A DNA stretch of 40,785 bases from a bacterium (GTDB taxonomy: Bacteria > SZUA-182 > DTGQ01): assembly GCA_040752695.1 (NCBI GenBank), contig JBFMGO010000043.1, forward strand, positions 1 to 40,785, written 5' to 3'. Positions 13,211 through 37,887 of this stretch are shown here, one piece after another. The stretch's first letter is position 1. Every line of letters starts with the position of its first letter. A model generated the notes under the pieces. It searched no databases, was not told the DNA's origin, and worked only from the letters and a program-made list of their open reading frames with translations. Made by a program: the position numbers and the translations under genes.

Positions 13211-13325
13211 TCCGTTGACTTAATTCCCTATTTATGTATAATTTTTGATGCAATTCTTACCATGAAATTATTATTTTCTGCTTCACAGCATTTCCTGCCT
13301 TCGGCAGCGCTTTGGAGGGAAATTA

Positions 13326-17467: not shown

Positions 17468-19951
17468 TTATGGCGCTGAAATTATCAGATCACCGCCACT
17501 GGTGGTTGCTGGCCCTTTTGAATAGTAAGGACTGTTGTCCGGTTTATTAATGATAATCCCGAAGCTGTCGGGAGATCCGTCAGTTACCGTGGCCGTGAAG
17601 GTGTATCCTCCAACGCCATTGACTGTCCCTGTACCGCTTATGGTAGCTGTACTCCCCGCGATAGATACCGTTGTAACCTGGGTACTCACAAAATTCATAC
17701 GGGTTCGGGAATAATAGTATTTGAACCATCCTGAAGGTGATGAGGGGCCGGTGACATCCATCGAAAAACTTGCCTTATAGGTTGCAGTTTCAGGGAAATT
17801 ATAGGCGCCGCCCGAGATTCTCACTTGTGTATCCACTTTCATCTCATATGCACCTATATCATATTCTGCACTGTGATCACCGTTACCGTCCTGTGGCCTT
17901 GCTATGCCATTTTTATCCCTGTCAGGGGCTCCCTGGCTGGTTCCGGCATCGATACAGGGAGAAGCAGGCTGCAGGGAGTAATTACCTGCTCCGGAATCAA
18001 TGAAAAGGGGATTCTGATTGATATTGCCTATACCACCGTATCCATCCTGGATATCAGAGTAGGTAACGCTGGTGAGAAGGCTGTCATCCGAAACGTGAAT
18101 TTCATTGGGTGAATCTCCCCAGAGGATACAGTTTGTGATCCGTGGAGTGGAGTTATCACAGTAAACTCCGCCGCCGGATAGAGCAGTATTACTGCTCAGA
18201 GTACAGTTAGTCAGAATCGGTGAGGCATCCTCACAGTAAATTCCACCGCCGGCACCACTTGAAATGTTTCTCACTATAACGCAATTCATAATGGTCGGTG
18301 AAGAGCCTCTGCATAAGATTCCACCTCCCAACGGTGCCTTTCCGTTTCGCAGGGTAAGTCCCATCAAGAGAGAGTTGTTTTGCTCTCCATGATCAAAGGT
18401 GACAACACTTCCTTTCCCGTCTCCATCGATAATGGTATCAACTGCTATATCCGGCATAGTACCCATTACCATAATTGCCTTACCCATGAAAGAAATATTC
18501 TCTGTATACGTGCCTGGCTCGATACTTACTACATCCCCATTGCCGGCAGCGTTGATTGCAGCCTGAATACTCCCGCCAGGTGAAACGCGGATCTCAACGG
18601 CTCTGGCATAGAAGGTTGCTCCCTCCTCCATCCACTCGCTGTAATTCACTCCGTCAAAGGCCCGTGCCCGCCAGGAATACCAGGTATTCTTGGGCAGGTT
18701 GATCCCGCACGTCCAGGAAGTGATGGATGCTCCCTCGACGACTCCATTAGCGGATGTTATGGCTGGTGGGGTTAAACTGGCGTTGGGATAAATCTCAAAT
18801 TCATAGGTGAGAGCGTCTCCATCCGGATCGGAGCTGTTGCTTATCTGCAAAGCAGGTGTCGAGGTTGTAATTTCATTCATCTGGACAGGGTAATGGAGAG
18901 CAGGTTTTAAAGGAGGCCGGTTTATCGAGACAGTGGTAATGGCATCCGGTGTCTCTGGGGCCTGTTCATGATGGCCTACATTGTCTGTAGCTATACTATA
19001 GAAGGCATAGGCACTATCACCTTTGCCGGAAAACGTGCCGCTGGTGGCAGTGGTATTTTTCAGCCAGAGCTTGTAAGGACCGCCATTTTCCGATACATAG
19101 ATATCATAACCCGCAATCCCTGAGCCATCGGCATCGTCCTGGCCGGTCCAGGTTACGGCAAACTGGCCGGGAGAGTGAGCAGGGAGGGCGGTGACTTGGC
19201 TGGCGGGAGTGCCTGCATCGATGGTGTTGAAAACCAGCGGAGTATCCATGGGCGGATTCCAGTCAAAGACGATAGTGGCTACGTTTTCGATTTTAGTGCC
19301 GGCGGGAAGGTTGGAGGATGGTTTGATTGAGAATTTAACGTATCCTTCCCCTTCGTGGTTATCTCCATTAGGCGGCAGGAATCCGGCCAGTGGGTCTTCG
19401 GTTTGCTCGCCGGTGGCTGGGTCGATGGCCGTAAAGGTCCAGGAAGCCATGCCGGTCGAGGGGTCGAAATTGCCTTCGATATCGACCAGGAGGTTATTGC
19501 CTTCGGGACGAAGGTCCACGCGGGTGGAGTAATGCTTGAGGCCGGGAGGGACGGTAATGTGGTGATTGCTAAATTCCATATCGCCAAGGGTAAAGGTGCT
19601 ATAGTCGAGGTGCGGAGAAAGAGGATCGGTGATAGTGACCAGTTGGGCTGAGGCGACAGCCTCCTTGTCATTTTCGAAGCGGATGGTGTAGGGAAGGGTC
19701 TCATTCGGCTGAATATGTCCCATTGTGCCAACACCTACCGAGATCAGCTTATCGTTGGGGTCGTGGGAAAAGATAGGCGATATGGGGAATGATTGACACA
19801 AAGCGTAGGCAGGCTGTGGGACTAATAGATACTGGATAAATTCTAAAGGATTTAGACCAGGGAGCACCAGGATGCAAAAAAACAGCATACCGAGAATTGA
19901 AAGGTGATGTTTTAGTTTATCTTTTAGTATATTGCCTGGCATGCATATCAT
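17468..19951 (-). CDS. Secreted multidomain protein: SxDPNDK (DUF7619/DUF11-like) domain, FN3-like domains, right-handed beta-helix with choice-of-anchor-Q-like motif, C-terminal post-COAP-like domain
   Basis: GGAGG RBS 7 nt before ATG 19951 (track start 20011 is an alternative). Signal ends PAYA; motifs SHDPNDK...YTIRFEN...IVFDWN, GSGIAGYDIYVS, YSWRARAFDG, SIQAAIN...GGGIYC, SPCIDAG...DIGAYE. Confidence 0.85.
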   Translation of the reverse strand: MICMPGNILKDKLKHHLSILGMLFFCILVLPGLNPLEFIQYLLVPQPAYALCQSFPISPIFSHDPNDKLISVGVGTMGHIQPNETLPYTIRFENDKEAVASAQLVTITDPLSPHLDYSTFTLGDMEFSNHHITVPPGLKHYSTRVDLRPEGNNLLVDIEGNFDPSTGMASWTFTAIDPATGEQTEDPLAGFLPPNGDNHEGEGYVKFSIKPSSNLPAGTKIENVATIVFDWNPPMDTPLVFNTIDAGTPASQVTALPAHSPGQFAVTWTGQDDADGSGIAGYDIYVSENGGPYKLWLKNTTATSGTFSGKGDSAYAFYSIATDNVGHHEQAPETPDAITTVSINRPPLKPALHYPVQMNEITTSTPALQISNSSDPDGDALTYEFEIYPNASLTPPAITSANGVVEGASITSWTCGINLPKNTWYSWRARAFDGVNYSEWMEEGATFYARAVEIRVSPGGSIQAAINAAGNGDVVSIEPGTYTENISFMGKAIMVMGTMPDIAVDTIIDGDGKGSVVTFDHGEQNNSLLMGLTLRNGKAPLGGGILCRGSSPTIMNCVIVRNISSGAGGGIYCEDASPILTNCTLSSNTALSGGGVYCDNSTPRITNCILWGDSPNEIHVSDDSLLTSVTYSDIQDGYGGIGNINQNPLFIDSGAGNYSLQPASPCIDAGTSQGAPDRDKNGIARPQDGNGDHSAEYDIGAYEMKVDTQVRISGGAYNFPETATYKASFSMDVTGPSSPSGWFKYYYSRTRMNFVSTQVTTVSIAGSTATISGTGTVNGVGGYTFTATVTDGSPDSFGIIINKPDNSPYYSKGPATTSGGDLIISAP

Positions 19952-20099
19952 ATTTTCCCTCCAAAACCTTGTTAATCTGTGAATCTTGTGAAGGTCTTCC
20001 CGATTTCCCATTGTTTTTCCCCAGTATTTTTAGTCTTCGCTTACGGGTCTTAATTCGGTTCCCTCGATATGTTCCTGGTTTTATAACAACATCAGGTTT

Positions 20100-20163
20100 T
20101 AGGCGCTTGCCCGTTCCTTAGGATCTTATGCCCATCTAATAGGATCTTACGTCCATTCAATAG
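20100..20163. repeat. 21-bp tandem repeat (two good copies, one degenerate) between the giant gene and its partner
   Basis: taggatcttatgcccatctaa (20119) and taggatcttacgtccattcaa (20140). Confidence 0.8.
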
Positions 20164-20187
20164 CCGGTGCTTCTATAATTTAATCTT

Positions 20188-23100
20188 TTATTCTACTATA
20201 CATAAATCATTAGAGGGTGTGGGATTTCCATCTATTTTGGATTCATCATTCCTTCTGAAAATAGCAGTGGCGGATATATCTTTAGTAACCAAAATTACCT
20301 GCTTTTGAAGATCAGGTTTAATAATGCCATCCGTAACACTAGGGCCTTGCCAGTGATCGAATTGATATCCCTCTTCCGGTTCTGCATTGAACTCTATCTC
20401 GTCTCCTTCAAAATAGACCATATCCGTTCTATCATCATAAATAGCTTCAGGCACAGTGCGTTCCTTTATGTAGACTGGAACGGACCCACCATCCCCACCA
20501 TAAAGACGGGCTATATAGCAGGGCCTATTTATATTCTTATACTCTTCGTATTGTGCTACGTAATTGTTCCAGCGTTTCCAGAATAGAGCAGATGAATTAT
20601 TACATTTATCAATTTTTATTTTAATACTCTGAAGATTATTATAGTAGTCTTCCATTCCCTGATAAAATGTATCTACTATACTAAGAAGGGTTTGAAATTC
20701 AAAAACAGTTCCTGAAATCCCCCTACATGCTCGTCTCTTGATAGTATAGCGGATCTCTTCTTCTCCTGTTGCAATCACTATTTCTCCAACTGCTTTAGAA
20801 AGTTCTGTAATAGCAGTTTTGAGGTTCTTAAGATTTTCTTTTTCCTCTGCTACGACCTTTATATACTCATTATTGATATTCCCATCCTTATTAGCACTAT
20901 AGTTATTTTTTAACTTTTCTAATGATTCCCGAGTATTTTTCTCCGCATTAAAAAATTTTTCTTCTTCTTTACTGAGCGTAGTATAAATTTTCCTCTTCTC
21001 TTTAGTAAGTATATGACCCCGATAAACTGTATAAAGTACATCTCCTGCAGGTCCTATGCAGTCGATAGCCCAACCAAAGGGCTGATAACTAAGATATACC
21101 TGAGCGAGCTTACTGATAACTTTAAGTGCCCATTCTCCCTTAGCCAGTGCTATTTCTGTACGAATGTCTATACCTAGCTGATTAATTGCATTATAAGTAT
21201 CAGTGCCAAGATCTTCGGTTGGATATGGTAGCGGTGTAATCTTCCATTTATTTTTGAATTTAACTTGCCAATTAAATTTACTAAAGCTGTCGTAATTCTC
21301 TAATACATATTGATAATCTCCGGAATGATAATAAAAGCTACCGAAATAGTGTGAAGAATCAAGCTGAGAATCATCTGGCCTTACGAGATCGTAGCTATGA
21401 TCAAATGTTTTCACTAAACTTATATATTTATCCCATAATAGGGACGTAGGCTCAAGTTTCTTACAAAATTGAGGAATTAGTTTTCCCAATACCTCTCGAT
21501 ACTTTGACTCACAACCAATACTTTTCCAGGTGTCGGGCCAGATTTTATCTGACAAAGGCATGGCGTTATAATATGGAAGCGTATTAAGTGTCTGATCAAG
21601 ATAACCAAGTTTAATTTTCTCAATTTTCCCATGATCAGGCAATTGCTCCATTGAAATTCGCATTCGATATATTGTTGCTAATCCAGAATTGTCATCAGCT
21701 ATCCAAGCTGGACCAGGAGCTAGTAGCGCTGTATTAAGTGGAATACTAAGCTCAGTATTATCCTCGATCAATATAGTTATCGTGCTCTTTGCAATACCTC
21801 GGCAAGCTTGGATAGAGTAAGTGCCATCTTTCAGAGGGCCAGATGTGAACACCCCAACTGAATTTGATAGTCCGTTATATAGTGCAGTATTTCCACTATA
21901 AATCAATACTTCAACTTCGGCTATTGGCAAACCGGTAGATTCATCCACAGTGTTAACAGAGATAGAAAAACCCTCTTTGTCAAGAACAAAGGTATAGTTC
22001 ATAGAGGATTCAATAGTTAAGGAAGTTTTCAAAGGTGTATACCCTGGTGCTTGCACTAATGCCTCCCACGTGCCTGGTTGAATACCCTCAATCAAATAGT
22101 TACCTGCGTCGTCAGTAGTGACGCGGAGTCCAGGATCATCGGTTCCTGCATGCGTGCTTACTAAGCTAACAATTGCAGAAGGAATTGGTTGGCCATTAGC
22201 TTCGTCATTAACCATTCCCGATAATGATATACCAGAAGATACATTGACATCCACAGCTATTGTTTCTTCCTCTCTTATAGAAGTGCTCATCGTGGTACAG
22301 GCGAATCCTGCAGCCTGAACGACAATCCAATACTCCCCAGTTACGAAACTAGAAAAATTATACTTTCCATCACCCTGCGTAATGGCATATAAGCCTCTAG
22401 ATCCACTATCTTTCAAAATCACGGTTACCAGGGCATCAGCAATTGGCTCACCAGTTTCAGCATTTCTAATGATTCCGTTGAGAGCCCCTGAGGCTGCGAT
22501 GAAATCCAAATTGAATGTCCCACCTCCACTGCCCTCAAGTTGCTGGGTTTTGAAAGAGTAACTTTCGTGTCTAGCGCTCACGGAATAATCTGCTGGGGGA
22601 ATATTAATAAACTTATATTTACCATCATCCCCTGTGAGATCCTCTGCAATAGATACCCCATTAGAAGTTTTCAATGTAATCCACGTATTAGACAAAGGAG
22701 TAACTTTATCTGCCGCAGTTATAGTACCAGATAAGGATATACCCTTGGTTAGTGAAATCACCAAACCATCTGCAATACCGGAAACAGGCACTTTAATTAT
22801 ACGCTGGGCAGTGCAGTATCCTTCAGCCTCAACACTAAGAGAATAGACATCCGGTGCAAATTGATCACCGATGAAGATGCCATTTCCTTCACTGGTCAAA
22901 GTATATATAGCCCCACTATTTGACTTGAAAGTAATTGAAGCCCCGCTAACAGGCGTTGTACTATCTGGTTCAGTGACTAGCCCCTTCACTGACACACCAT
23001 CGCGCAGTTGAAAATTCATCCCTGCTAAGACTTGGCCAAGCACTAGTGACGTGCTCTCATAAATTGATGGGATAAAGCCGCCAACTTCAACCCGAATTGT

Positions 23101-26100
23101 ATGTATGCCCTCATATAAACCAACGATTTGAAAGTAACCACTTTCATTGGTAGCAGCTATTCCCATGCTGTTATTCGGTCCTTGAGCAAATACTGCCGCG
23201 CCAACAATAGGTTTTCCATTGCTATCTACAACCATTCCCGAGACGGAAGCACCAAGGACAAGGCTAAAATCCTGAGTAGCAGATCCGCTAACCACCACAT
23301 TAACAATAGTAACCTTTGACTTGAGAAATCCCTCAGCACTGGCAAAAACCTCCCAATCACCACCAGCAAGTTCACTTACCTTATACACTCCGTTCTCATC
23401 AGTCATAGCGCTCGCTACCTCACCACTCTCTACTCTTGTAGCCATGACATAGGCACCCTCAATCGGATGTCCTCCCTCGTCAGTAACTTTCCCGCTTATT
23501 TCAGCTCCTTTAACCAGGTCGAAAAGCACATCAGAACGCATCTCTCCTTTGGCCAGAAAAAAGGCTGGTTTTTGCTCTTCCATATATCCTTCCACTCTGG
23601 CTTCAACGGTGTATACATCCTGTGGCAGCCCTTTAAGGTTGTAATAACCCTCATCATCTGTTCGCCCTGTAGCGAATGTGCCGGTATTTTTTCCCCGTGC
23701 CGATATCAATGCATCCTTAATTGGTATCCCACTGTCCTTCACATAGCCGCTTATCTCGCCTCCCGGTGATACATAAACAACATGATCGAGACAATCCTTA
23801 TCCCCCTGGACTTCAGCCGAGGCACCCTCATCAACCAGATACCCTTCCACCTCAAGCTCATAATGTCCTTCAGGCAGACCAGTCAATAAATAAGTACCAT
23901 TCATATTAGTCACAGCCCTGGCATAACCTGTTCCTCCGGGCTGGTAAGCAAAAATAGTAACCCCTGCAACTGGAGTGTGACTATCACTTTCATAGACAAC
24001 ACCACTTATGGCTCCCCTATGACCGCCGTAGGCGATATTTACCTCAAGGCCAAAGAGTTTACGCACATCGTATATCCTTTCACCGTACAGGGCGAGACGT
24101 CTTGCATCTTCCCTGAGTACTTGAATATACGAACCCCAGGTATTACCAAGCTGGCTCTGTATATTCTCCCATATAGGCTTCCATGTTTCCTCATCCATGC
24201 TTTTAGGCTTGAGGGTGGCATCTACCTTGCTCCAATCAATCGGCTCATCCAGTTGGTCCACGATGTTCAGGTAAATTGGCACATTGAGTGTATTATCTAT
24301 TTTAAACTCCATCTCAATTGAATACGTTGAACCAGGAGGAAGCACATCTACAGGATTTTCTTTTGCAACGCCAAGTACCTGCACCGGATTTTGGTGAAAT
24401 GCCTCCGTGGAGAAGAGACGCAAAAAGGACCCCTGTCCTCCGGTTACCACCATTAAAGGTGCCGGAATATCCGCATCACCGATATTTCCATAATCCAGGG
24501 TGAGGGTATAAGGACGACCCGGTCGCACCAGGTTTGGCATAACCAGCCGCGAATACAACTCCCCGCCCTTGCCCTGCACCACATTGAGTTCCTTGCTGCA
24601 CACTGAGCCATCAGGATTTATAAGCTCAATACGATAGCTGCCGGCAGGTTTACCGGTCAAATCGAAGGTGACGAGCAAAAATCCGGTATCCTTGAAAGTA
24701 ACCACCCCTGTATCCACAATATTGCCCGCAGTATCTTTCAGAAATACCGTGCTTCCGGGAGCAAAGTTAAATCCGCTGATTCCCACCGTTACCTTACCGG
24801 CATTTCCAGCCTCACTTATACTCAGCCCGCTGATGGAGTGATCTGGCAGGACGGCTCTCAACTCATACGCAGGGGGCGAAGCCGGGCAGTTATACCCATA
24901 GATCAGAATATAATAGACACCGGCCCTGGCTCCCAGAATCCGATCCACGAGGTTGCCTGATGGGTCTTTCTCTCCCTTGGTATCATAGCTGCTCCTGGTC
25001 GGTATCTTTCCATAAGCCGCATAAAGCTCAGCGTTCTCTCTGGCCGCTCCGGCAAGAGTAATGATCAGGTCCTGCCCTGCCTCAGCAGTAATCTGGTAAT
25101 ATAAAGACTGGCCCTTGGCAATGGTACCGGTTTCTGTCATGTTCAAGGCCAACTCCCTGCCGATGACCGTGATCTGGCCAAGAGATACGGCTGTATTATT
25201 TTCTTCATCGGTTTCCCGTACATCATCGAAGATATCCGTACTGGCCAGAACTGAGTAAATTCCCGGCATTACCGCTGGAATGTCGGCAGTAATGGTCTTG
25301 GTATAGCTTTGACCTTGCGGCACATCTCCATCGTCCGCTGAATGGAAAACGCGGGCGATACGCTGATCACCGAGGTTCCATTCCTGATCGGAAGATAAGT
25401 ACAAAGTATCGTACCAGGCACCGACTGCATCCTGACTGCCCTGGTTTTTCACTTCATAGGTCCAGGTAGCGGCCTGGCCATAGATGCCGCTGCCCGGAGG
25501 GCTGATACTGGTTACCACCAGGTCTGCAGGGGGAGTGAGATTGACCTCTACTGTCGAGCAGGAAACCGTACTATTATTATTCTCTTTTTCTCCCTCAACG
25601 ACGTGACCAGGAGTGCCACTGTCAGTCGTCACGATCACATAATAGGGACCTGCTGCCCAGCCCGGCAGTTTGGGTTCAAGGCTTTGGGTGTAGGTCCCTC
25701 CGGCGGCAAGTTCACCTTTGTGGCGAGTGTTGCCAAGGGAAAGATCACTACTTGAATCAAGATAGGGATCTCTTGAAAGATAAACCGTGTCATCCCAGAA
25801 TCCATCTTTGGCTGAGGTTGACACCGTACCCTCATTCGTCACTGTCCACTCTATCCTTATACCTTGCCCTGACCAGGCAGTCTCCGGTAGAACAATAGTG
25901 GTCACTCTCAGGTCCGGAGTCGGAGCGGGATTAACGGTCAGGGATGCACAAGCAGTATTGTTTTCCTCCCCTTCATATTCATAGATATCATTGAACTTAC
26001 CGGAATCGGTCTTGACAATCACCTGGATATTCCCTGCCCGGTCCTTGGGCAAAGGAATACTCCTGGTCACTGAATAGCTTGCTCCGCCAGCCAGGGAGCC

Positions 26101-29100: not shown

Positions 29101-32100
29101 ACTTGGATAAGACTCCCAAGTACGTTTAAGTGGCGTATCACCAGTCCAGCTATAGATTGTATCAGAGGATATAGTAATATCATGCCCCTTGATATATTGA
29201 GTCGCCTGGGTACCGGTATTGGATATTTTCCATTCAACCGTAATAGTTTCACCTGACTTCACTTTTGGGGGCACATGAAAATAATCCACTTTAAGATAGG
29301 GTGGCGAGGATGGCGGGATGGTCACTTCTGCTTTATAAGAGCTTTGTCCCACATTGTTATTTTCCCCGTCAAACTCCTCTACCTTATCATCAGCATCTGT
29401 TTTAACTAAAACATAATAAGAACCCTTTGGGGCCGAACCTGGAATGGTCACTTCCTGAGTTTGTGTATAGGCTTCCCCCGGTGCAAGAAACTCCGCGTTT
29501 CGGAGAGCAGCCACCTCGATATCCCAGGTATTTATAGTTGTATCAGATGAAAGATACAGCTTATCATACCAACAGGCTGAACTGGTTGCACCGTTCCCCT
29601 TGTTTTCAACCGTCCAGGAGAAGGTCGCCTTTCCCCCGGCACTTAAGGTTCCCGGCACTGTTACACTGGTCACCTGAAGGTCAGGATAGGGCCTTGTAGT
29701 AATCCAGAGCGGTGGTGTAGCCACCAGGGTATTATTGCTTCCTGCTCCCTGCTCAGCCAATCCGCCGGAGATTCCCTGACTGTTGGCCTTGACGATGATC
29801 CATCGCTGGCCATTGATTCCATCGGGAAGGGTGATAGTTATGGTTCTGGTGTAGGTTTTCCCAGGATCGACTGACTGATTGAATTGGGCCTCACCTATCT
29901 GGGCATCATCGGTACTATATTTTGAGTCTCCAGAAATATACACTGAATCCGTCCATTGGCCAATGGCCTTACCTATCCCGTTATTGGTAACTGTCCAGGT
30001 AATGTCGATTTGTCTGGCTGCTCTTCCCTCGGCCGGGTGCACTATCCTGGTCACCACAAGGTCTGGCAATTGCTGGATAAAATCAAAGCTGTATACATCG
30101 TCATCTGCCTCCCCCTGGCTGCCATCCTGGTCCTGATCCAGAAGATTGCCCGCAATGTCCTGAATCGTCGGAGCAATGGCCACATGATAGGTTCCATCTG
30201 TTAAAGAAGGGGTGAGTTTGACCTGGAATACGGTGGTTGAATCAGCGGGATTTGGCTTTACTTCACTAATGGCAACCTTCCCCGCCGGGCCAGTCACAGT
30301 CACTGCCTCTTTGATAAAGGTAGCTGGCTTAATCGCCTCGCTGAAGGTAAGATCAAAGGTCTGTACCGGCACGTTCTGGATGCCGGAAAGAGAATGCCCT
30401 GTAATTTTCGGGCCGGCACCGTCAAGACTAAAACTGCCGACATACCGGTCATCATAGGGTTCGCCATTGATCCCATCCTGATCCTGATTGAGAGGGTTCC
30501 CGGCTAGATCGAGTACCTGCGCTCCAATAATGAACCGGTAGGTCCCCTCACTTTCCTGGGGTGAAAATGCTACGGTAAATTTTTTCTGTTCCGCACCATC
30601 AACCGGAGTTATGGATTCAGGAGTGATTCCCCCTCCCGTGGGTCCAGCGATAGATACATACTCCGCAATGAAAGAGGAAGGATTTATGGCTTCATTGAAC
30701 GTGACGTCAAAAGAGCTTATTGGCGGTTTGACCCTTCCAGATGGCGAGTGGGCGACAACCTGTGGCCCAGCCGCATCAATTATCTTGAACCAGGCATCGT
30801 AGCGGTCTTCTTCCGGCTCACCGGTTATGCAATCTCCATCCTGATCGATAAGGAGGCCATCCATGCTTTCTATCTGAGGCCCGATGTATACGTGGTAGAT
30901 TCCAATATTGCGCTGTTCGGTAAAGCCAATCCGGTAAGTGGTACTGTCTATTCTGGTTGGCCCGCTCGTTAGTTGTATGGGTCCCGCAGGGCCGGTTATC
31001 CCTATATCAGCCGATGTAAAAGTACCTGCCTTGATTTCCTGACTGAAGGTAATGGTCATGATATTTACCGGCAGTATCTGATCGCCGCTCGGCGAGTGTC
31101 CGGAAACCTTGAGGCTGGGCAGAATAGAGAATGTAGCTGTATAGAGATCTTCTCCTTGCTCTCCATTGCTGTGGTCTCTATCCTGATCCATCGGATTTGC
31201 GCTCAGGTCCGTAATCTGTGGGCCTATCACAAGCCGGTAGGCGCCGGCAAATGTCTGAGCGGGAAAATTGATTCTGAAACTGACAGGATCAAGCTGGGTT
31301 ATGGAACCAGGAATGATTATTCCACCCGGCCCGCTGATGGATACATCTTCCAGGGTAAAGGATTCCGGATCAACCGGCTCATCGAATATCATATCAAAGA
31401 AACTTATCGCCGGGCTGACATTTCCTGAAGGTGAGGAAGAAACAACGTGCGGCCCGATAATATCTTTAATTTTAAAAGAGAAATGATATCGATCGTCAAT
31501 TTCCTCTTCCAGCAGGCCATCCTGGTCCTGGTCCATATTCACACCTGCCATATTTTCAATCCCCGGACCGATTGTGATGTGATAGGTTCCAGCTATCGTC
31601 TGCTCGGCAAATCCTGTTTGCCAGATAGTGCCCTCAATCCAGGCTGGCCCATCCGTTATCGATACACTCCCTGCCGGTCCAGTGATGACGATATCATCTG
31701 CCGTGAAAGTGGCAGGGTTTATCTCCTGACTGAAGGCAAGGGTGAACCTGCTTACCGGCGGTATCTGATCTTCACGTGGCGTATGATCGGTAATCCGGGG
31801 TCCGGCCATAATGGTGAAGATGGTGACATACTGATCTTCCACCTCCTCGCCGTTGGTCCTGTCTTCGTCCTGGTCCATGGGATTATGGGCAAGATCGGTA
31901 ATCTGAGGGCCGATGTTTACCTGATAAACCCCGGCCAGTCTCCGATCGGGCACGGCAGCCCGAAAACTCGCTGCACCCAAACGGGTAATAGCGGTTGGGG
32001 TAATGGTTCCTCCTGGTCCTGTGATTAACAAATCCCCTGCCTCAAAAGAGACCGGATCGATTTCTTCATTGAATACGATGTCAAGAGAGTTTACCGGCGG

Positions 32101-35100
32101 CTTGACATTCCCCGATGGTGAAAGGGAAAGAACGCGCGGGCCGGATACATCGATGATGATAAAGGAAGCGTCATAGCGGTCATCCTGCTCTTCTCCGATT
32201 ACACCATCCCGGTCCTGGTCCATCGGCAGGCCATCGAGATTTTCAATGAATGGCCCGATCAATACACGATAAGTTCCAGGCATTCCCTGTTCAGCAAACA
32301 CTGCCTGATAGGTGGTCCCTTCCACCAATGTCGGACCATTTATAACGAGCACCTGCTCCCCCGCGGGATTTATCATGATAATGTCATCTTGCAGGAAGGT
32401 AGCCTCATTTATTCCCTGACTAAAAGTAAAGGTCATCAAATTGACGCTATGAGGCTGATCTTCCGCCGGGGTATGACTGACAATTCTCAATCCCGCCAGG
32501 ATCGTGACACCGGCTGCAAACCTGTCTTCCTCCGCTTCCCCATCGATCGAATCATTGTCTTGATTCATTAGGTTCCCAGCCAGGTCAAGAATCTGGGGGC
32601 CAATTATTACTTGGTACTGCCCTGCAAGCCTCTGCTCAGGGAAATCTATCCTGAATCTTGCCGGATCATCCGGATCATCTAATTGCGTGATCGAATCAGG
32701 AACAATGACTCCTCCGGGCCCGGTAATGGAAATATCCTCTATCGCCAATGAATCCAGGTCAATTGATTCATTGAAGCTGATCTCCATATGATCTACGGGA
32801 GGTGACAATCTCCCCGATGGAGAGCATGAAACTACCTGAGGTCCTTTAACATCAACAGTAATGGTTACTTCCTCGCTGTCACTCATCTGAGGCTCACCAT
32901 CGTCAGTAACCGTAAAAGTAATGAGATACTCACCGGCATCTTCATAACCCGGCTGCCAGGTAAAGGTACGGGTGCCTGGATCAAAGCTCGCACCCGAAGG
33001 GACGCCGGTAGCTGAATAGGTAAGGGTATCATGTACGTCCGGATCAGAAGCAGTGACCGTGAAGGTAAGGGTGTCGCCATCTTTTACGACCTTATTACCA
33101 ATAGGGTCGAGTATCGGTGCCCGATTGGCTTCATCTGTACACCAGCAGCACCCGTCACCCATGTATTCATCGCAGTCTGCAAATTCAACCGGTGGGCAGG
33201 TATCGTCAAAATCACGCCCGGCCTGATAGCAGGCCATGCCTCTTTCACGGCAATACTCCAGGCATGAAGATCCATGGATGAATTCCCAATGTGTCGGCTC
33301 ACTACTTGCAGGAGTAAATTTCTGAATGCGGTGATTCCAAGTATCAGCCACATACACATTCCCGCTGCTGTCTACTGCTATTCCTCTGGGAGATTTAAAT
33401 TGTCCATCCCCCGATCCACTACTTCCCCATTTGGTCAACAACACACCCTCAGAGCTGAATTTCTGTATCCGGTTGTAGGCATCTTCAGCTACATATACAT
33501 TTCCACTGCTATCTACTGCTATTCCGTTGGGGGAATAAATTTGTCCATCCCCTGATTCTTCACTTCTCCATTTGGCCAAAAACACACCCTCAGAGCTGAA
33601 CTTCTGTATCCGGTGACTTCCAATATCAACTACATACACATTACCGCTGCTGTCTATTGCGATTCCGTTGGGGGAATAAAATTGTCCATCCCCTGATCCA
33701 TTACTTCCCCACTTGGCCAGAAAGACACCCTCAGAGCTGAATTTCTGTATCCGGTGATTTCCAGTATCAGCCACATATACATTGCCGCTGCTGTCTACTG
33801 CTATTCCATTGGGATACGAAAATTGCCCATCCCCTGATCCATTACTTCCCCATTTGGCCAAAAATACACCCTCAGAGCTGAATTTCTGTATCCGATGATT
33901 TCCAGTATCAGCCACATATACATTGCCGTTGCTGTCTATTGCCATTCCGTTAGGAGAACAAAATTGCCCATCCCCTGATCCTTTACTTCCCCATTTGGCC
34001 AAAAATACACCCTCAGAGCTGAATTTCTGTACCCTATTGTTATCACTATCAGCCACATACACATTCCCGCTGCTGTCTACCGCTATGCCGCAGGGCCAGG
34101 AAAATTGCTCATTCCCTGATCCGCGACTACCCCATTTGGCCAAAAACACACCCTCAGAGCTGAATTTCTGTATCCGGTCGTTGCTATTATCAGCCACATA
34201 CACATTCCCGCTGCTGTCTACTGCTATGTCGGTGGGATACGAAAATTGCCCATCCCCTGATCCATTACTTCCCCATTTGGCTAAAAATACACCCTCAGAG
34301 CTGAATTTCTGTACCCTATTGTTATCACTATCAGCCACATACACATTCCCGCTGCTGTCTATCGCTATGCCGTAGGGCCAGGAAAATTGCCCATCCCCTG
34401 ATCCATTACTTCCCCATTTGGCCAAAAATACACCCTCAGAGCTGAATTTCTGTATCCTATGGTTATCACTATCAGCCACATACACATTCCCGCTGCTGTC
34501 TACCGCTATGCCGGTGGGCCAGGAAGATTGCCCATCCCCAGATCCATTACTTCCCCATTTGGCCAAAAATACACCCTCAGAGCTGAATTTCTGTATCCTA
34601 TGGTTATCACTATCAGCCACATACACATTCCCACTGTTGTCTATCGCTATCCCGTTGGGGGAAAAAAATTGCCCATCCCCTGATCCTTCACTTCCCCATT
34701 TGGCCAAAAATATACCCTCAGAGCTGAATTTCTGAATGAGGTGTTTTACTCTATCAGCCACATACACATTCCCGCTGCTGTCTACTGCTATGCCGGTGGG
34801 AATAAAAAATTGCCCATCCCCTGATCCATTACTACCCCATTTAACCAATAATACACCTTCAGGGCTGAATTTCTGTACCCTGCTGTTGGCACTATCAACC
34901 ACATACACATTCCCGCTGCTGTCTACCGCTACGCCGATGGGAGAATTAAAATGCCATGCAATAGAGGGTATCTTCCATACAAATTCCATCTGTGGCTCGG
35001 CCTTGATAACAGTAATGGTTATTTCTTCACTATCACTCATCTGAGGCTCGCCATCATCAGTAACCGTAAAAGTAAGATGATAGACGCCGGAATCACCGTT

Positions 35101-37887
35101 ATCCGGCTGCCAGATAAAGGTACGAGTGTTCGAATCAAAGTACGCGCCATCAGGCAAGTCACTCACTGAGTAGGTCAATATGTCACCGGGATCAGGGTCA
35201 TGACCACTTACAGCAAAGGAAAGAGATTCTCCCTCTGGCACTATCTTATCACCTATTGGATCGAGAACCGGCGGGGTATTCGAAGCAGGAGGAGCAGCAG
35301 CGGTCCTCGAGGCACTGATAAAATTAACTGAACAAGACCCAATGCTCATGTGCGCATGCGGTTGAAAGGTAACGGTTTTCCCGGACATTTCCATGGTAAC
35401 GGTAAAATAAACATCGCCTATGTAGGTATTGCCTGAATTTCTATTTATACTTAATGCCAGAACCTGCGAAGGTGAGGTATTTCTGAAACTTTCATTATCG
35501 TATATTAAATTCGACAGCATGCTATTGGTTTGCGAGACGCTGCCAACAACCTCCCCAGGCACTATAGGGGAATAAGAACCTAAGTTGCTCTTATATATGC
35601 CTAACCCAAATCCATCAACCGAAGAATTACTGGTAAACTTCAAACTATCGATATCAAAAGCTGTGATATTCTCATTACCGGTATTGACTATCAAGAGATA
35701 GCTATAAATTTGAGTAATTCCACATCCATTGCAGAGAGTGGCATTCATATTATCTATGTAAATAACTTCGTATGAGATATTGTTAAAAACGGTAATAGTT
35801 ATTTCCTCGCTGCAACTCATCTGAGGCTCACCACTATCGGTTACCGTAAAAGTGATGTGGTACTTATCGCCAGCATCTTCATAACCAGGCTGCCAGGTAA
35901 AGGTGCGGGTATTCGGATTAAAGCTTGCGCCAGAAGGGATGCCTGTAGCTGAATAGGTAAGGATGTCATTATCGTCCCGATCAAAAGCATTAATTGCAAA
36001 GGTAAGCACATCGCCATATTGCATTGCCTTATTGCCAATAGGATCAAGAAGTGGTGCATGATTCACCTGACTCCCTTGGCTAAATTTCTGTATCCTGTTG
36101 TTACCGCTATCAGCCACATATACATTACCGCCGCTATCTACGGCTACTCCTGAAGGTTGCCTAAATTGCCCATCCCCTGTGCCATAGCTTCCCCACTTGG
36201 CCATAAAAAACCCCTCAGAGCAGAACTTTTGTATCCGGTGATGTTCTATATGCTCGTAATCTTCAGTATCTGCCACGTATACATTGCCACCGCTATCTAC
36301 GGCTACTGCATAAGGACAGGCAAATTGTCTATCCCCAGATCCATAGCTTCCCCATTTTTTCAGAAAGACCCCCTCAGAGCTGAACTTTTGTATCCGATAG
36401 TTATAAGGGTCAGCCACATACACATTACCGCTGCTATCTACAGCTATGCCACGAGGGTACCTCAATTGTCCATCTTCTGATCCATTGCTTCCCCACTTGG
36501 CCAGAAAGACCCCCTCAGAGTTAAATTTCTGTACCCGATGGTTATAAGAGTCAACTACATATACATTATCGATGGTATCTACGGCTACTCCAGAAGGTCC
36601 TTGAAATTGTCCATCTCCCGATCCATAGCTTCCCCACTTGGCCAGAAAGACTCCCTCAGAGTCAAATTTCTGTATCCGATTATTGGAAGGGTCAGCCACA
36701 TACACATTACCGCTGCTGTCTACCGCGACACCACCAAGAGGATAACCAAATTGTCCATCTCCAGTGCCCTCACTTCCCCACTTGGTCACAAAGATCCCCT
36801 CAGAGTCAAATTTCTGTATCCGATAGTTCTCCTCATCAGCCACATACATATTCCCGCTGCTATCTATGGCTATTCCCTTTGGATTATTAAAATGTCCATC
36901 CCCTGATCCATTGCTTCCCCAGTTAGCCAAAAGGTCACCCTCAGAGCTGAACTTTTGTATCCGACGGTTATCGCTATCTGCCACATACACATTACCACCG
37001 TTATCTATAGCTATTTCATAAGGGTAGCCAAATTGTCCATCCCCTGTGCCATGGCTCCCCCACTTTTTGAGAAAGACACCCTCAGAGCTGAATTTGGATA
37101 CCCGCTGGTTGTTGGTCTCTACTACGTACACATTCCCGCTGTTGTCTACTGCTATGCCACGGGGGTAGCTCAATTGTCCATCCCCTGTGCCATTGCTCCC
37201 CCATTTTTTCAGAAAGACACCCTCAGAGTTGAATTTCTGTATCCGGTGGTTACTAGTTTCAGCTACATACACATTACCGCTGCTATCTACCGCTATTCCC
37301 CAGGGAGTACTAAACTGCCCATCCCCTGTGCCATTGCTCCCCCATTTTTTCAGAAAGACACCCTCGGAGTTGAATTTCTGTATCCGACGGTTATTGGTAT
37401 CTGCCACATACACATTACCACTGCTATCTACGGCTATTCCCCGTGCGGCATAAAATTGCCCGTCCCCTGCGCCATAGCTTCCCCATTTCTTCAAAAAGAC
37501 ACCCTCGGAGTTAAATTTTTGTATCCGTGCTCGACTACTGGCGTCTAGCACGTACACATTGCCGCTGCTATCTATGGCTATTCCGGAAGCCTGCCAAAAT
37601 TGGCCGTCTTCTGTTCCAAAGCTTCCCCATTCGGTAAGCAGGGTACCCTCAGCGTCAAATTTCTGTATCCGACACCCACTAACGATTACGTACATATTCT
37701 CACTGCTATCTATTGCTACACCACCAAGAGAGTCAAAGTACCATGCCTTACCAGGTATCTTACTGACAAACTCTATCTGCGCTCCAGCCATGCCAAAAGT
37801 CTTAAACAGAACTATCACAGGTACAATACAAAGAATATATAATCTTACTCTTTCCCTGAGACTGAATTTAGAGAAAAACCCTTTCAT
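20188..37887 (-). CDS. Giant 5899-aa secreted surface/adhesin-like mosaic protein
   Basis: Uninterrupted 17.7-kb ORF with signal peptide. Order: 12 NHL, Ig, insert, Ig, 12 NHL, Cys-rich mini-domain, Ig, 8 SbsA-Ig, 13 CARDB, PPC, IPT-like, conserved linker domain, 9 carboxypeptidase-regulatory-like repeats, unique helical region, InlB B-repeat-like domain. Confidence 0.95.
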   Translation of the reverse strand: MKGFFSKFSLRERVRLYILCIVPVIVLFKTFGMAGAQIEFVSKIPGKAWYFDSLGGVAIDSSENMYVIVSGCRIQKFDAEGTLLTEWGSFGTEDGQFWQASGIAIDSSGNVYVLDASSRARIQKFNSEGVFLKKWGSYGAGDGQFYAARGIAVDSSGNVYVADTNNRRIQKFNSEGVFLKKWGSNGTGDGQFSTPWGIAVDSSGNVYVAETSNHRIQKFNSEGVFLKKWGSNGTGDGQLSYPRGIAVDNSGNVYVVETNNQRVSKFSSEGVFLKKWGSHGTGDGQFGYPYEIAIDNGGNVYVADSDNRRIQKFSSEGDLLANWGSNGSGDGHFNNPKGIAIDSSGNMYVADEENYRIQKFDSEGIFVTKWGSEGTGDGQFGYPLGGVAVDSSGNVYVADPSNNRIQKFDSEGVFLAKWGSYGSGDGQFQGPSGVAVDTIDNVYVVDSYNHRVQKFNSEGVFLAKWGSNGSEDGQLRYPRGIAVDSSGNVYVADPYNYRIQKFSSEGVFLKKWGSYGSGDRQFACPYAVAVDSGGNVYVADTEDYEHIEHHRIQKFCSEGFFMAKWGSYGTGDGQFRQPSGVAVDSGGNVYVADSGNNRIQKFSQGSQVNHAPLLDPIGNKAMQYGDVLTFAINAFDRDDNDILTYSATGIPSGASFNPNTRTFTWQPGYEDAGDKYHITFTVTDSGEPQMSCSEEITITVFNNISYEVIYIDNMNATLCNGCGITQIYSYLLIVNTGNENITAFDIDSLKFTSNSSVDGFGLGIYKSNLGSYSPIVPGEVVGSVSQTNSMLSNLIYDNESFRNTSPSQVLALSINRNSGNTYIGDVYFTVTMEMSGKTVTFQPHAHMSIGSCSVNFISASRTAAAPPASNTPPVLDPIGDKIVPEGESLSFAVSGHDPDPGDILTYSVSDLPDGAYFDSNTRTFIWQPDNGDSGVYHLTFTVTDDGEPQMSDSEEITITVIKAEPQMEFVWKIPSIAWHFNSPIGVAVDSSGNVYVVDSANSRVQKFSPEGVLLVKWGSNGSGDGQFFIPTGIAVDSSGNVYVADRVKHLIQKFSSEGIFLAKWGSEGSGDGQFFSPNGIAIDNSGNVYVADSDNHRIQKFSSEGVFLAKWGSNGSGDGQSSWPTGIAVDSSGNVYVADSDNHRIQKFSSEGVFLAKWGSNGSGDGQFSWPYGIAIDSSGNVYVADSDNNRVQKFSSEGVFLAKWGSNGSGDGQFSYPTDIAVDSSGNVYVADNSNDRIQKFSSEGVFLAKWGSRGSGNEQFSWPCGIAVDSSGNVYVADSDNNRVQKFSSEGVFLAKWGSKGSGDGQFCSPNGMAIDSNGNVYVADTGNHRIQKFSSEGVFLAKWGSNGSGDGQFSYPNGIAVDSSGNVYVADTGNHRIQKFSSEGVFLAKWGSNGSGDGQFYSPNGIAIDSSGNVYVVDIGSHRIQKFSSEGVFLAKWRSEESGDGQIYSPNGIAVDSSGNVYVAEDAYNRIQKFSSEGVLLTKWGSSGSGDGQFKSPRGIAVDSSGNVYVADTWNHRIQKFTPASSEPTHWEFIHGSSCLEYCRERGMACYQAGRDFDDTCPPVEFADCDEYMGDGCCWCTDEANRAPILDPIGNKVVKDGDTLTFTVTASDPDVHDTLTYSATGVPSGASFDPGTRTFTWQPGYEDAGEYLITFTVTDDGEPQMSDSEEVTITVDVKGPQVVSCSPSGRLSPPVDHMEISFNESIDLDSLAIEDISITGPGGVIVPDSITQLDDPDDPARFRIDFPEQRLAGQYQVIIGPQILDLAGNLMNQDNDSIDGEAEEDRFAAGVTILAGLRIVSHTPAEDQPHSVNLMTFTFSQGINEATFLQDDIIMINPAGEQVLVINGPTLVEGTTYQAVFAEQGMPGTYRVLIGPFIENLDGLPMDQDRDGVIGEEQDDRYDASFIIIDVSGPRVLSLSPSGNVKPPVNSLDIVFNEEIDPVSFEAGDLLITGPGGTITPTAITRLGAASFRAAVPDRRLAGVYQVNIGPQITDLAHNPMDQDEDRTNGEEVEDQYVTIFTIMAGPRITDHTPREDQIPPVSRFTLAFSQEINPATFTADDIVITGPAGSVSITDGPAWIEGTIWQTGFAEQTIAGTYHITIGPGIENMAGVNMDQDQDGLLEEEIDDRYHFSFKIKDIIGPHVVSSSPSGNVSPAISFFDMIFDEPVDPESFTLEDVSISGPGGIIIPGSITQLDPVSFRINFPAQTFAGAYRLVIGPQITDLSANPMDQDRDHSNGEQGEDLYTATFSILPSLKVSGHSPSGDQILPVNIMTITFSQEIKAGTFTSADIGITGPAGPIQLTSGPTRIDSTTYRIGFTEQRNIGIYHVYIGPQIESMDGLLIDQDGDCITGEPEEDRYDAWFKIIDAAGPQVVAHSPSGRVKPPISSFDVTFNEAINPSSFIAEYVSIAGPTGGGITPESITPVDGAEQKKFTVAFSPQESEGTYRFIIGAQVLDLAGNPLNQDQDGINGEPYDDRYVGSFSLDGAGPKITGHSLSGIQNVPVQTFDLTFSEAIKPATFIKEAVTVTGPAGKVAISEVKPNPADSTTVFQVKLTPSLTDGTYHVAIAPTIQDIAGNLLDQDQDGSQGEADDDVYSFDFIQQLPDLVVTRIVHPAEGRAARQIDITWTVTNNGIGKAIGQWTDSVYISGDSKYSTDDAQIGEAQFNQSVDPGKTYTRTITITLPDGINGQRWIIVKANSQGISGGLAEQGAGSNNTLVATPPLWITTRPYPDLQVTSVTVPGTLSAGGKATFSWTVENKGNGATSSACWYDKLYLSSDTTINTWDIEVAALRNAEFLAPGEAYTQTQEVTIPGSAPKGSYYVLVKTDADDKVEEFDGENNNVGQSSYKAEVTIPPSSPPYLKVDYFHVPPKVKSGETITVEWKISNTGTQATQYIKGHDITISSDTIYSWTGDTPLKRTWESYPSIPPGGSQTGSVSVSLPSQYAGKYYLFFIPDTRGGGSNVSGKDYGMAEIEIVPPDPPDISISSANIPATAISGQQMKVNWIVKNIGAGSTRSSTWNDAVYLSTDQILEGSDQELGISAHTGVLKASQGYEVTEFPVKVPAGMEGNYYILIKTDKNNSVWENNKDNNVRVSDTPVTISLVRSDLQVETATSSTAGIAGQLITVQWTVINAGPETTAIGNWLDKVYLSRDETLNTQSDKLLGSVPQSNALDPAHTYSRSQDFQLTQGIEGAYYIIIAADADDNLYEYNAENNNTFCIPSAIEVSDPAADLRVESFTVPATGITGQNVQVNWSVTNSGTAAAAGKWKDAVYLSKDTIFDSSDKLLTPSFEHSESVQPGGSYGHGIQREVRVPDSVEGTCYLFLVIDKDNTVYEKAGGEANNISEPQAITLTDVAADLRVESFTASSTGIAGQTIQVDWRVSNLGTVAAQAPWKDAVYLSEDDSLDTNSDTLLRTFVRSVSLAKDAGYGPDAPGEVRLPSNIGGPRYLFFVTDVDKNVYEKESGEANNISSPHVITLINQAADLKVESFTVPPAGIAGQTIQVNWSISNQGTASAVAPWQDKIYLSGDNSLDPALDTLVATFDHMESLATGASYGPPAAPHELLIPALPEHREGEYYLFFCTDADKSVYEKGIEENNVSVPQLITLSEKAADLQVQTASAPANAIANEIIAVSWTITNRGDAPAKGWKDAVYLSEDTVFDPKKDRLCGMFEQTGTLEAGQITGPPIQPAFIRIPDRLTGTYHLLVVTDDRNSVYEKGSGEGNNIFLIPQAIEIALQPADLQVTEVNAPLTAKAGSAITIGWTVMNKGNRDTDETFWKDGVYLSKDKTFDPASDINLGLVSRSGALATGASYSQSESFVVRQDVSGPYHVYVVTDAIHQVFEYDKEDNNTSSSPGTVQVTGVRADLVVSHLTVPTGGCQGQSIEITWTVTNAGPDSTLGNSWDDTVYLSSDNVPDAQDVRMDFKHQGSLAGGASYSVTRSIPLPKDRAGNIQVIVKTDSGKFNDIYEYEGEENNTACASLTVNPAPTPDLRVTTIVLPETAWSGQGIRIEWTVTNEGTVSTSAKDGFWDDTVYLSRDPYLDSSSDLSLGNTRHKGELAAGGTYTQSLEPKLPGWAAGPYYVIVTTDSGTPGHVVEGEKENNNSTVSCSTVEVNLTPPADLVVTSISPPGSGIYGQAATWTYEVKNQGSQDAVGAWYDTLYLSSDQEWNLGDQRIARVFHSADDGDVPQGQSYTKTITADIPAVMPGIYSVLASTDIFDDVRETDEENNTAVSLGQITVIGRELALNMTETGTIAKGQSLYYQITAEAGQDLIITLAGAARENAELYAAYGKIPTRSSYDTKGEKDPSGNLVDRILGARAGVYYILIYGYNCPASPPAYELRAVLPDHSISGLSISEAGNAGKVTVGISGFNFAPGSTVFLKDTAGNIVDTGVVTFKDTGFLLVTFDLTGKPAGSYRIELINPDGSVCSKELNVVQGKGGELYSRLVMPNLVRPGRPYTLTLDYGNIGDADIPAPLMVVTGGQGSFLRLFSTEAFHQNPVQVLGVAKENPVDVLPPGSTYSIEMEFKIDNTLNVPIYLNIVDQLDEPIDWSKVDATLKPKSMDEETWKPIWENIQSQLGNTWGSYIQVLREDARRLALYGERIYDVRKLFGLEVNIAYGGHRGAISGVVYESDSHTPVAGVTIFAYQPGGTGYARAVTNMNGTYLLTGLPEGHYELEVEGYLVDEGASAEVQGDKDCLDHVVYVSPGGEISGYVKDSGIPIKDALISARGKNTGTFATGRTDDEGYYNLKGLPQDVYTVEARVEGYMEEQKPAFFLAKGEMRSDVLFDLVKGAEISGKVTDEGGHPIEGAYVMATRVESGEVASAMTDENGVYKVSELAGGDWEVFASAEGFLKSKVTIVNVVVSGSATQDFSLVLGASVSGMVVDSNGKPIVGAAVFAQGPNNSMGIAATNESGYFQIVGLYEGIHTIRVEVGGFIPSIYESTSLVLGQVLAGMNFQLRDGVSVKGLVTEPDSTTPVSGASITFKSNSGAIYTLTSEGNGIFIGDQFAPDVYSLSVEAEGYCTAQRIIKVPVSGIADGLVISLTKGISLSGTITAADKVTPLSNTWITLKTSNGVSIAEDLTGDDGKYKFINIPPADYSVSARHESYSFKTQQLEGSGGGTFNLDFIAASGALNGIIRNAETGEPIADALVTVILKDSGSRGLYAITQGDGKYNFSSFVTGEYWIVVQAAGFACTTMSTSIREEETIAVDVNVSSGISLSGMVNDEANGQPIPSAIVSLVSTHAGTDDPGLRVTTDDAGNYLIEGIQPGTWEALVQAPGYTPLKTSLTIESSMNYTFVLDKEGFSISVNTVDESTGLPIAEVEVLIYSGNTALYNGLSNSVGVFTSGPLKDGTYSIQACRGIAKSTITILIEDNTELSIPLNTALLAPGPAWIADDNSGLATIYRMRISMEQLPDHGKIEKIKLGYLDQTLNTLPYYNAMPLSDKIWPDTWKSIGCESKYREVLGKLIPQFCKKLEPTSLLWDKYISLVKTFDHSYDLVRPDDSQLDSSHYFGSFYYHSGDYQYVLENYDSFSKFNWQVKFKNKWKITPLPYPTEDLGTDTYNAINQLGIDIRTEIALAKGEWALKVISKLAQVYLSYQPFGWAIDCIGPAGDVLYTVYRGHILTKEKRKIYTTLSKEEEKFFNAEKNTRESLEKLKNNYSANKDGNINNEYIKVVAEEKENLKNLKTAITELSKAVGEIVIATGEEEIRYTIKRRACRGISGTVFEFQTLLSIVDTFYQGMEDYYNNLQSIKIKIDKCNNSSALFWKRWNNYVAQYEEYKNINRPCYIARLYGGDGGSVPVYIKERTVPEAIYDDRTDMVYFEGDEIEFNAEPEEGYQFDHWQGPSVTDGIIKPDLQKQVILVTKDISATAIFRRNDESKIDGNPTPSNDLCIVE
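21745..24015 (-). repeat. Nine carboxypeptidase-regulatory-like (Cna-B/transthyretin-like) repeats; approximate limits
   Basis: Recurring ISGxVxD...PIxGAxV...TDxxGxY motifs. Confidence 0.8.
25180..30065 (-). repeat. Thirteen CARDB domains; approximate limits
   Basis: Recurring (P/A)DLxV...WTVxNxG...WxDxVYLSxD...ExxExNN; the third copy is divergent. Confidence 0.85.
30075..32845 (-). repeat. Eight SbsA-type Ig-like domains with DQDxDG loops, alternating two subtypes; approximate limits
   Basis: GPxVxxxSPSG and xxHTPxxDQ starts alternate; each domain has an IxDLAGN-type motif and an acidic DQDxDG loop. Confidence 0.8.
33315..34950 (-). repeat. NHL block 2: 12 near-identical 141-bp (47-aa) repeats
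   Basis: Twelve (R/L)(I/V)QKF motifs; DNA units such as cacattcccgctgctgtcta recur almost verbatim. Confidence 0.95.
36080..37735 (-). repeat. NHL block 1: 12 repeats of about 47 aa
   Basis: Twelve R(I/V)(Q/S)KF motifs with GIAVDSSGNVYVAD cores. Confidence 0.95.

Follow-up and report, generated by a model that had tools for sequence, protein, structure and literature searches.

The giant gene and its partner

The window analysed here is a whole contig (JBFMGO010000043.1, 40,785 bases) of a bacterial assembly that amounts to 6.05 Mb in 239 contigs, and the subject of this work is a pair of neighbouring genes on its reverse strand, which encode a giant surface protein and a smaller partner. 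In the list of open reading frames (ORFs), the giant gene spans 20188..37887 (-) and encodes 5899 amino acids, with its stop codon at 20188-20190, while the partner ORF spans 17468..20011 (-) and encodes 847 amino acids. Both ORFs lie at these positions as the first-pass annotation had described, and the translation of the giant reads ...GNPTPSNDLCIVE and then stops, which confirms its clean end at ...NDLCIVE. In most relatives the domains carried by the partner form the C-terminal part of the giant itself. Here they are encoded by a second gene behind a stop, a spacer, a ribosome binding site and a conserved leader.

The giant begins with a Sec-type signal peptide (MKGFF...GMAGA), followed by two NHL propeller arrays, He_PIG, Big_5, about 11 CARDB domains, PPC and an IPT-like region. 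After the IPT-like stretch the Pfam scan places nine CarboxypepD_reg domains, and then comes a variable tail of 590 residues ending in ...NDLCIVE. The part up to about residue 5282 (22042..37887 (-)) is the conserved stalk, which is colinear with the fused proteins P0273/G004 (55% identity) and P0274 (52%). The tail is made of a helical, K/N/Y-rich variable region (residues 5311-5810; 20458..21957 (-)), which ends in ...EEYKNINRPCY, and an InlB-B-repeat-like domain with a 20-residue end, ...NDESKIDGNPTPSNDLCIVE (20191..20457 (-)). The best family match of the latter, Flg_new_2, scores 21 bits, under its cut-off of 23.6.

The partner is composed of DUF7619, an FN3 module, a second Ig-like domain, a beta-helix, a choice-of-anchor Q domain and a post-COAP-1-like end. 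Before DUF7619 its ORF reads ...VPQPAYALCQSFPISPIFSHDPNDK...; the translation contains the stretch ...QPAYALCQSFPISPIFSHDPNDK... and, further on, ...TPASQVTALP...GSGIAGYDIYVS. DUF7619 (residues 84-265; 19217..19762 (-)) begins with DPNDK and is a beta-sandwich in the structural model. The FN3 module (...GSGIAGYDIYVS...) and the second Ig-like domain occupy 18602..19216 (-), the latter with a weak match to Sde0182_C. According to the family scans, the right-handed beta-helix region, the choice-of-anchor Q domain (42.8 bits, cut-off 25) and the post-COAP-1-like end (29 bits, under its cut-off of 40) occupy 17471..18574 (-).

Could the two genes be one gene broken by a sequencing error? They lie in different frames, and the intergenic 176 nucleotides (nt), counted from the giant's stop to the first ATG of the partner ORF at 20011, contain several stops in each of the three frames. 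Thus a single base error cannot fuse them. The first ATG has a poor upstream sequence, while the ATG at 19951, which is M21 of the ORF and lies 60 nt inside it, has a Shine-Dalgarno-like GGAGGG (19957..19962 (-)) 5 nt upstream. Judged from these signals, translation of the partner likely starts at M21, and the spacer between the genes then extends to 236 nt (19952..20187 (-)), with stops in all frames. Inside the spacer, at 20108-20149, there is a tandem 21-nt direct repeat whose copies are 76% identical and whose full pattern is unique in the genome. GGAG-type sites also stand about 10 nt before the starts of the giant gene and of the gene after the partner. No terminator-like hairpin was found between the two genes, where 0.8 would be expected by chance. 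Since no such hairpin separates them, cotranscription of giant and partner is plausible. The ribosome binding site, the leader ending in AYA, the DPNDK start and the PASQVTALP FN3 module that the first-pass annotation had ascribed to the partner all stand, the site being the above GGAGGG, the leader a putative signal peptide, and the domain after it DUF7619 at 69.4 bits.

Fused relatives and the variable slot

The break becomes meaningful when the two genes are compared with their relatives. Altogether 12 proteins of 3244-10324 amino acids match the PPC-IPT region of the giant, and 10 of the 11 other than the giant itself contain DUF7619 (PF24595). The eleventh is a partial record, and the giant of the window is the only complete one of the 12 without this domain. 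In the same genome, a paralogue on contig C61 is one open frame of 3948 amino acids (P0276, 3917 amino acids) in the order ...CARDB-PPC-IPT-...SSIGSYDPNLK-DUF7619-FN3. The nearest orthologue, in genome G004 of the same family, is a frame of 4531 amino acids (P0273 on G004:C247, 4528 amino acids), in which about 290 unrelated residues separate the CarboxypepD_reg repeats from VQASHDPNDK, with a module 72% identical to that of the partner. Metagenomes gave a similar result. Among 80 loci found with the N-terminus of the module, 70 have the module in-frame at least 300 residues downstream of the start of the frame, and six have 150-299 residues upstream of it, forming a small Ig-like N-terminal part. 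Two more are cut by the contig end, and the last two (L059, L080) resemble fused genes broken by a frame change. According to the first-pass annotation, the DPNDK block is normally part of the giant polypeptide itself, and the scoring of fused against split homologues that it proposed bears this out, the fused form prevailing among giants and metagenome loci alike. There are also stand-alone secreted DPN-DUF7619 proteins with a small N-terminal domain (P0006, P0009, G011/P0054), and stand-alone forms occur at metagenome loci as well (L090, L095, L097, L103, L104; four of five inspected).

Two side observations concern the C61 paralogue (G000:C61:9973-21816, partly covered by L018). Its DUF7619-FN3-Ig block is tandem-duplicated, the second copy starting with DRNFK and not DPNxK, and it is without a CarboxypepD_reg array or a long variable region.

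Where exactly does homology stop? Residues 2132-5282 of the giant align to residues 838-3992 of P0274 at 52% identity, and residues 82-479 of the partner align to residues 4336-4735 of the same protein. To P0273, giant residues 1901-4968 align at 55% identity, and the partner aligns from residue 82 too. Between the aligned parts there are 343 amino acids in P0274 and 288 in P0273, which are unrelated to the tail in the window and to each other. In the window the same gap is filled by the 590-residue tail, the stop, the spacer, the ribosome binding site and the leader. The fused giants P0273 (4528 amino acids), P0274 (4940 amino acids) and P0276/C61 (3917 amino acids) thus resemble the window in having a colinear stalk at 52-55% identity, a C-terminal module at 62-72% identity and, in the slot between them, a non-homologous variable region, which has a low GC content in G004. 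They differ in being single polypeptides, whereas the window has a stop, spacer, ribosome binding site and leader in the slot and an extra B-repeat on the end of the giant. This InlB-B-repeat-like domain is absent from the position in the fused relatives inspected.

The filling of the slot is also distinct in base composition. A low-GC block of about 2.2 kb (19763..21960 (-)), whose parts have 37-40% GC against 45-54% in the flanks, has its right edge at the DPNDK codons and comprises the tail, the stop, the spacer, the ribosome binding site, the leader and the 13 residues between leader and module. The GC content is 0.45 in the CarboxypepD_reg region, 0.368 in the helical tail, 0.386 in the B-repeat and end, 0.403 in the spacer, 0.402 in the leader and 0.537 in DUF7619, and it is continuous from the tail through the spacer to the leader. 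The variable region of G004 has a GC content of 0.355, against 0.44-0.49 in its flanks.

Neither Pfam nor NCBIfam assigned a family to the tail. Searched against 1.84 billion representative sequences, it gave 407 matches at E <= 0.001, of which the 150 listed all fall on query residues 473-586, that is on the B-repeat, and none of the matches listed is a relative of the helical part. When the tail was compared with the variable regions of the fused relatives by phmmer and BLASTP, only CarboxypepD_reg repeats were shared. The best score of the tail in a protein atlas was 0.85, under the useful range, and an AlphaFold model of the 590 residues, built without an alignment, reached a pLDDT (predicted local distance difference test score) of 33 and is unusable.

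One feature does recur in the slot. In L026-L029, L045 and P0275, the helical variable region closes with a Cys, or with a cluster of the CxxxC type, some 20-50 residues ahead of DPN, and a Pro-rich linker comes next. At least one Cys is found 20-50 residues before DPN in 9 of the 10 fused relatives examined. The tail in the window has a matching ...NINRPCY, followed by the extra B-repeat and the stop where the relatives have the linker. A membrane-helix hairpin was also considered as a common feature of the variable regions and was dropped, as hydropathy was inconsistent across 11 regions. In one metagenome, L026-L042 include 16 contigs with related giants and the same slot. Among them, L026-L029 have helical, AT-rich variable regions followed by C...Pro-rich linker...SYDPNDK, and several others (L030-L039, L042) have the start of the module altered to ...D[VI]HDKLTSIG, without DPN.

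The leader and the module of the partner

The conserved leader covers 50 residues of the partner (21-70; 19802..19951 (-)). It has a basic start (K30, K32, K34), a hydrophobic run LSILGMLFFCILVLPGL, the motif PGLNP, a second short hydrophobic stretch and an end of the form P-x-x-A-Y-A, and its hydropathy peaks at 1.98 over a 19-residue window. A 13-residue linker, LCQSFPISPIFSH (19763..19801 (-)), joins it to the module, and the Cys in this linker is invariant in all three leader-bearing proteins. The other two, P0004 (601 amino acids) and P0005 (706 amino acids), are independent stand-alone proteins with a homologous leader. P0005, annotated merely as a hypothetical protein of an unclassified bacterium, matches the leader region with an E-value of 3e-16 and 60% identity. 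Both proteins are like the partner in the A-x-A-x-C motif, in SHDPNDK and in the DUF7619-FN3-Ig order, and differ from it in their C-terminal ends, which are without a beta-helix. Aligned with one another, the three proteins agree in 15 columns of leader and linker, among them A-x-A and the Cys 2-3 residues later. The module itself is 63-69% identical among the three proteins and the leader is about equally conserved. An untranslated stretch would not stay this similar beside such a module. Together with the stops in all frames and the ATG preceded by a Shine-Dalgarno sequence, the conservation of the leader in P0004 and P0005 indicates that the split is real and evolved. The argument of the first-pass annotation for an evolved split and against a frameshift is thereby strengthened.

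How widespread is the leader? Used as a query against 20 representative genomes of the phylum, it was detected only in that of the window itself, where it has no second copy, and it occurs in none of the 80 metagenome loci. The search for it in proteins covered those of 465-1483 amino acids and has limited reach, as it found P0005 and missed P0004. Among the 120 matches listed of 732 proteins in this size range, only P0004 and P0005 join a hydrophobic N-terminus with DPN within the first 60 residues. A scan of contigs with P0005 gave three loci, none of which is the contig of P0005 itself, and one of which (L023) shares later domains only. An origin of the leader from an in-frame VLPPGS..EF segment of the paralogue was considered and rejected: with a query of 80 residues, tblastn matched only query residues 41-80, i.e. 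partner residues 61-100 around DPN, at 38% identity. In the fused P0275, homology seemed to reach into the leader, and this turned out to be an ungapped run-on with no real identity.

DUF7619 (PF24595) matches the partner in two stretches (cut-off 27 bits), and position 1 of the family model falls on D84 of DPNDK. The family was created as a CnaA-like one predicted to form isopeptide bonds inside the domain, in a survey of such intradomain bonds, where DUF7619 is named a close relative of DUF11/CLIPPER, a CnaA-like Ig fold (bioRxiv 10.1101/2025.04.25.650565). Residues 71-383 of the partner were modelled on 11 sequences, with a pLDDT of 84, as two beta-sandwich domains. With this model Foldseek returned FN3 modules, and Ig-like domains from AgI/II adhesins and from pilins such as BcpA. 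The probability was 1.0 to the Ig domains of AspA, BspA, SspB, BcpA and PrgB, with TM-scores of merely 0.3-0.4 over the two-domain model. Among solved structures no match to the module was found by sequence (best E 0.24). K88, E113 and N252 are invariant in all 11 close sequences, the Lys88 position being I or L in many distant members, and the partner retains every family-invariant position.

In the model, DPNDK is the first strand of what appears to be a stalk-type Ig-like domain. A structural role is also argued by S-H-D-P-N-D-K being invariant in the split forms, where nothing needs cutting off. A self-processing module of the FrpC type, which cleaves at Asp-Pro, was considered and is unsupported: it is absent among the 50 Foldseek matches listed and has no match by sequence in the PDB, although this is a weak test.

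The gene neighbourhood gives some idea of the host. Nearby genes for Omp85, PagL and an outer-membrane beta-barrel protein indicate a host with two membranes (Gram-negative-type). Next to the partner, the product of a gene at 16868-17434 (-), 188 residues long, has a signal peptide and, at its C-terminus, a sorting signal of the PEP-CTERM type (...VPEPSPLLLFSFGFLGLLSISGMKKR). This gene begins 33 nt past the stop of the partner, has a GGAGG site of its own and may belong to the same operon. Further along, 14439-15245 (-) encodes a secreted protein of 268 residues, which consists mostly of GGLYGG-type Gly/Tyr/Leu repeats and matches no Pfam family. At 13160-13600, ORFs on both strands overlap over a short-period repeat (TAITTAVVIAV... 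/ NNCTN...) where a gene for a PagL-like lipid A deacylase begins. A 961-residue protein at 10187-13072 (-) shows an unusual combination, pairing Peptidase_M1 with a C-terminal Omp85-type barrel. Finally, the genes in 1-7000 (BtrH_N/DUF4872, a B12-binding radical SAM enzyme, a KAS III-like protein, two ketoacyl synthases and an acyl carrier protein) form a small lipid or polyketide-type pathway.

A probable gene fission and its alternatives

How did one gene become two? The explanation that we regard as probable is an evolved fission of the giant surface protein by a variable cassette that has its own stop and restart. The plan of the family is a stalk (NHL, Big_5, CARDB, PPC, IPT-like and CarboxypepD_reg domains), then a variable helical region of foreign composition, and then a conserved C-terminal module of DUF7619 from DPNDK, FN3, Ig and beta-helix. 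In the window the low-GC cassette would occupy the variable slot, close the first protein with the extra B-repeat domain and the stop, and supply, whether brought along or evolved later, a ribosome binding site and the conserved 50-residue export leader for the module. One transcript would then yield both proteins, each of them exported on its own by Sec. The cassette may have arrived, or been swapped in, by recombination between the conserved flanks.

Several observations weigh against this explanation and should be noticed. The database gene call for the partner (P0003, 751 amino acids) starts at M97, past DPNDK, and omits the leader. As a signal peptide the leader is atypical, since 17 residues separate its main hydrophobic run from AYA. 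A leader-bearing partner is linked to a giant at this one locus only, and the left side of the junction, from tail to spacer, is known from a single assembly. The low GC content of the block could in part reflect its K/N/Y-rich composition and not a foreign origin. Lastly, the tree unites the three leader-bearing proteins and the fused G004 in a small group with an unresolved internal order, and G004 sits among the three split forms with support of 85/82 and 94/92. Taken at face value, this placement would require that a gene was fused again or that recombination took place. The approximately unbiased (AU) test, for which the grouping was chosen after seeing the tree, did not reject a single origin of the three split forms (p = 0.20).

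If the chain was cut, are its halves brought together again? In a two-part extracellular assembly, the separately exported partner would recapture the giant and rebuild the ancestral chain, by a disulfide or by strand complementation. The candidate pair for the disulfide is the C-terminal Cys of the giant (..DLCIVE) and the Cys right after the AxA site of the partner. The two halves are one chain in the relatives, which makes a functional coupling plausible, and the absence of a terminator between the genes fits co-expression. The invariance of the linker Cys in all three leader-bearing proteins points the same way, as does the Cys shortly before DPN in nearly all fused relatives examined, so that the split may lie near the disulfide-bonded end of a variable region. 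On the other hand, the C-terminal Cys of the giant is not comparable across species, and the stand-alone secreted module proteins with a small N-terminal domain indicate that the module needs no covalently attached giant. Capture by isopeptide chemistry at DPNDK, which the first-pass annotation had also put forward, gives way to another reading: the family is predicted to bond within itself and not between chains, and DPNDK, as the first strand of DUF7619, is better read as part of chemistry within one domain (bioRxiv 10.1101/2025.04.25.650565). A co-fold of the last 170 residues of the giant with partner residues 71-383 scored 0.01 against a mark of 0.32, which gives no answer and is not evidence either way. 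On balance we consider such an assembly rather unlikely.

Orphan modules arise behind Rhs and CdiA genes by cassette replacement. The partner might likewise be a displaced remnant, left over when a new stop-bearing cassette replaced an old one, and be unexported or decaying. A low-GC cassette with its own stop lies exactly in the variable slot, as this would require, and the database gene call begins past the leader. Moreover, modules severed from their upstream part by frame changes are seen in L059 and L080 (2 of the 80 loci) and in G003:C147, and 9 of the 120 matches listed start at most 30 residues from DPN without a hydrophobic N-terminus. A decaying gene is, however, hard to reconcile with an intact frame of 847 codons, a good ribosome binding site before M21, a leader conserved at the protein level with at least 60% identity in two other lineages, and a module that is 72% identical to that of the fused orthologue with all family-invariant positions kept. 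We therefore hold the remnant explanation to be improbable. Least credible of all is an apparent split that results from a chimeric join, or from errors, in the contig assembled from a metagenome: the assembly is in 239 contigs and the giant gene is highly repetitive, but the join of leader and DPNDK is present in two other independent assemblies, composition runs on without a step from tail through spacer to leader, the segment 19000-22500 recurs nowhere else in the genome save for about 70% identity to the C61 paralogue within DUF7619, and a single error is excluded by the number of stops in each frame.

The slot before DPN raises a further question, whether it is a place where effectors are exchanged. 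The DPN-DUF7619-FN3 module is found behind a wide range of N-terminal parts, Rhs cores included. In the Rhs-type protein P0029, a Tlde1 toxin domain (residues 295-390; 39.2 bits against a cut-off of 30.1) lies between the Rhs core and DUF7619-FN3, and since the core precedes it and the module follows it, this toxin domain is internal and not C-terminal. The slot thus behaves as the variable end of a polymorphic toxin does, although it lies inside the protein. A bolder proposal, which we think unlikely as a whole, is that DPN-DUF7619 marks the right border of an exchangeable foreign effector cassette in a large, undescribed class of polymorphic surface proteins, with CARDB- or Rhs-type stalks and an internal toxin or variable domain. 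The window would then hold a splitting cassette, which ends the stalk, frees the variable domain at a true C-terminus and relaunches the module with its conserved leader, the halves being rejoined extracellularly through the conserved Cys. No toxin domain was found in the tail by Pfam or NCBIfam, and no immunity gene candidate was identified directly downstream, where the next genes encode the DUF7619 partner and the PEP-CTERM protein. For these reasons the window is not filed as a polymorphic toxin. A genome of the window's own family has a further Rhs case: in L021 (G003:C147, 1270-3862) the end of an Rhs core is followed, in an overlapping other frame, by about 95 variable residues, IDPNDK and a DUF7619 without its middle part. 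A frameshift, an error or decay of the gene could account for this arrangement.

What does the fission of this gene add? Gene fission of multi-domain surface proteins is already known, and in the literature on DUF7619 and this architecture we found no paper that describes this split or a design with an internal cassette. What is new here is the placing of the break in a foreign variable slot, the conservation of the leader across three lineages, and the family-wide internal variable region before DUF7619. The locus offers a clean natural case of how a giant surface protein can be divided between domains and remain functional, through a stop, a ribosome binding site and a leader acquired in one compositionally distinct piece of DNA. 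It also exposes a design of the whole family, in which a region unrelated between orthologues stands between a conserved stalk and the DUF7619-FN3 module. If the halves act alone, this is ordinary gene fission. Should the variable region prove to be an effector, the family would extend the concept of polymorphic toxins to internal cassettes, and the split form would give a handle on the role of the C-terminal module.

Among known systems, DUF11/CLIPPER and other CnaA-like domains come near the partner, DUF7619 having been named closely related to them and the model matching Ig-like domains of adhesins and pilins at low TM-scores, with the Lys-Asn/Asp bond in DUF7619 being predicted only. A parallel in organization is given by the polymorphic toxin systems Rhs and CdiA, which have exchangeable ends and orphan modules. 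They differ from the present family in that here the variable region is internal and followed by a conserved module, and in that the tail in the window belongs to no toxin family. They are alike in having a conserved delivery part and a variable region that is unrelated between close relatives and foreign in composition.

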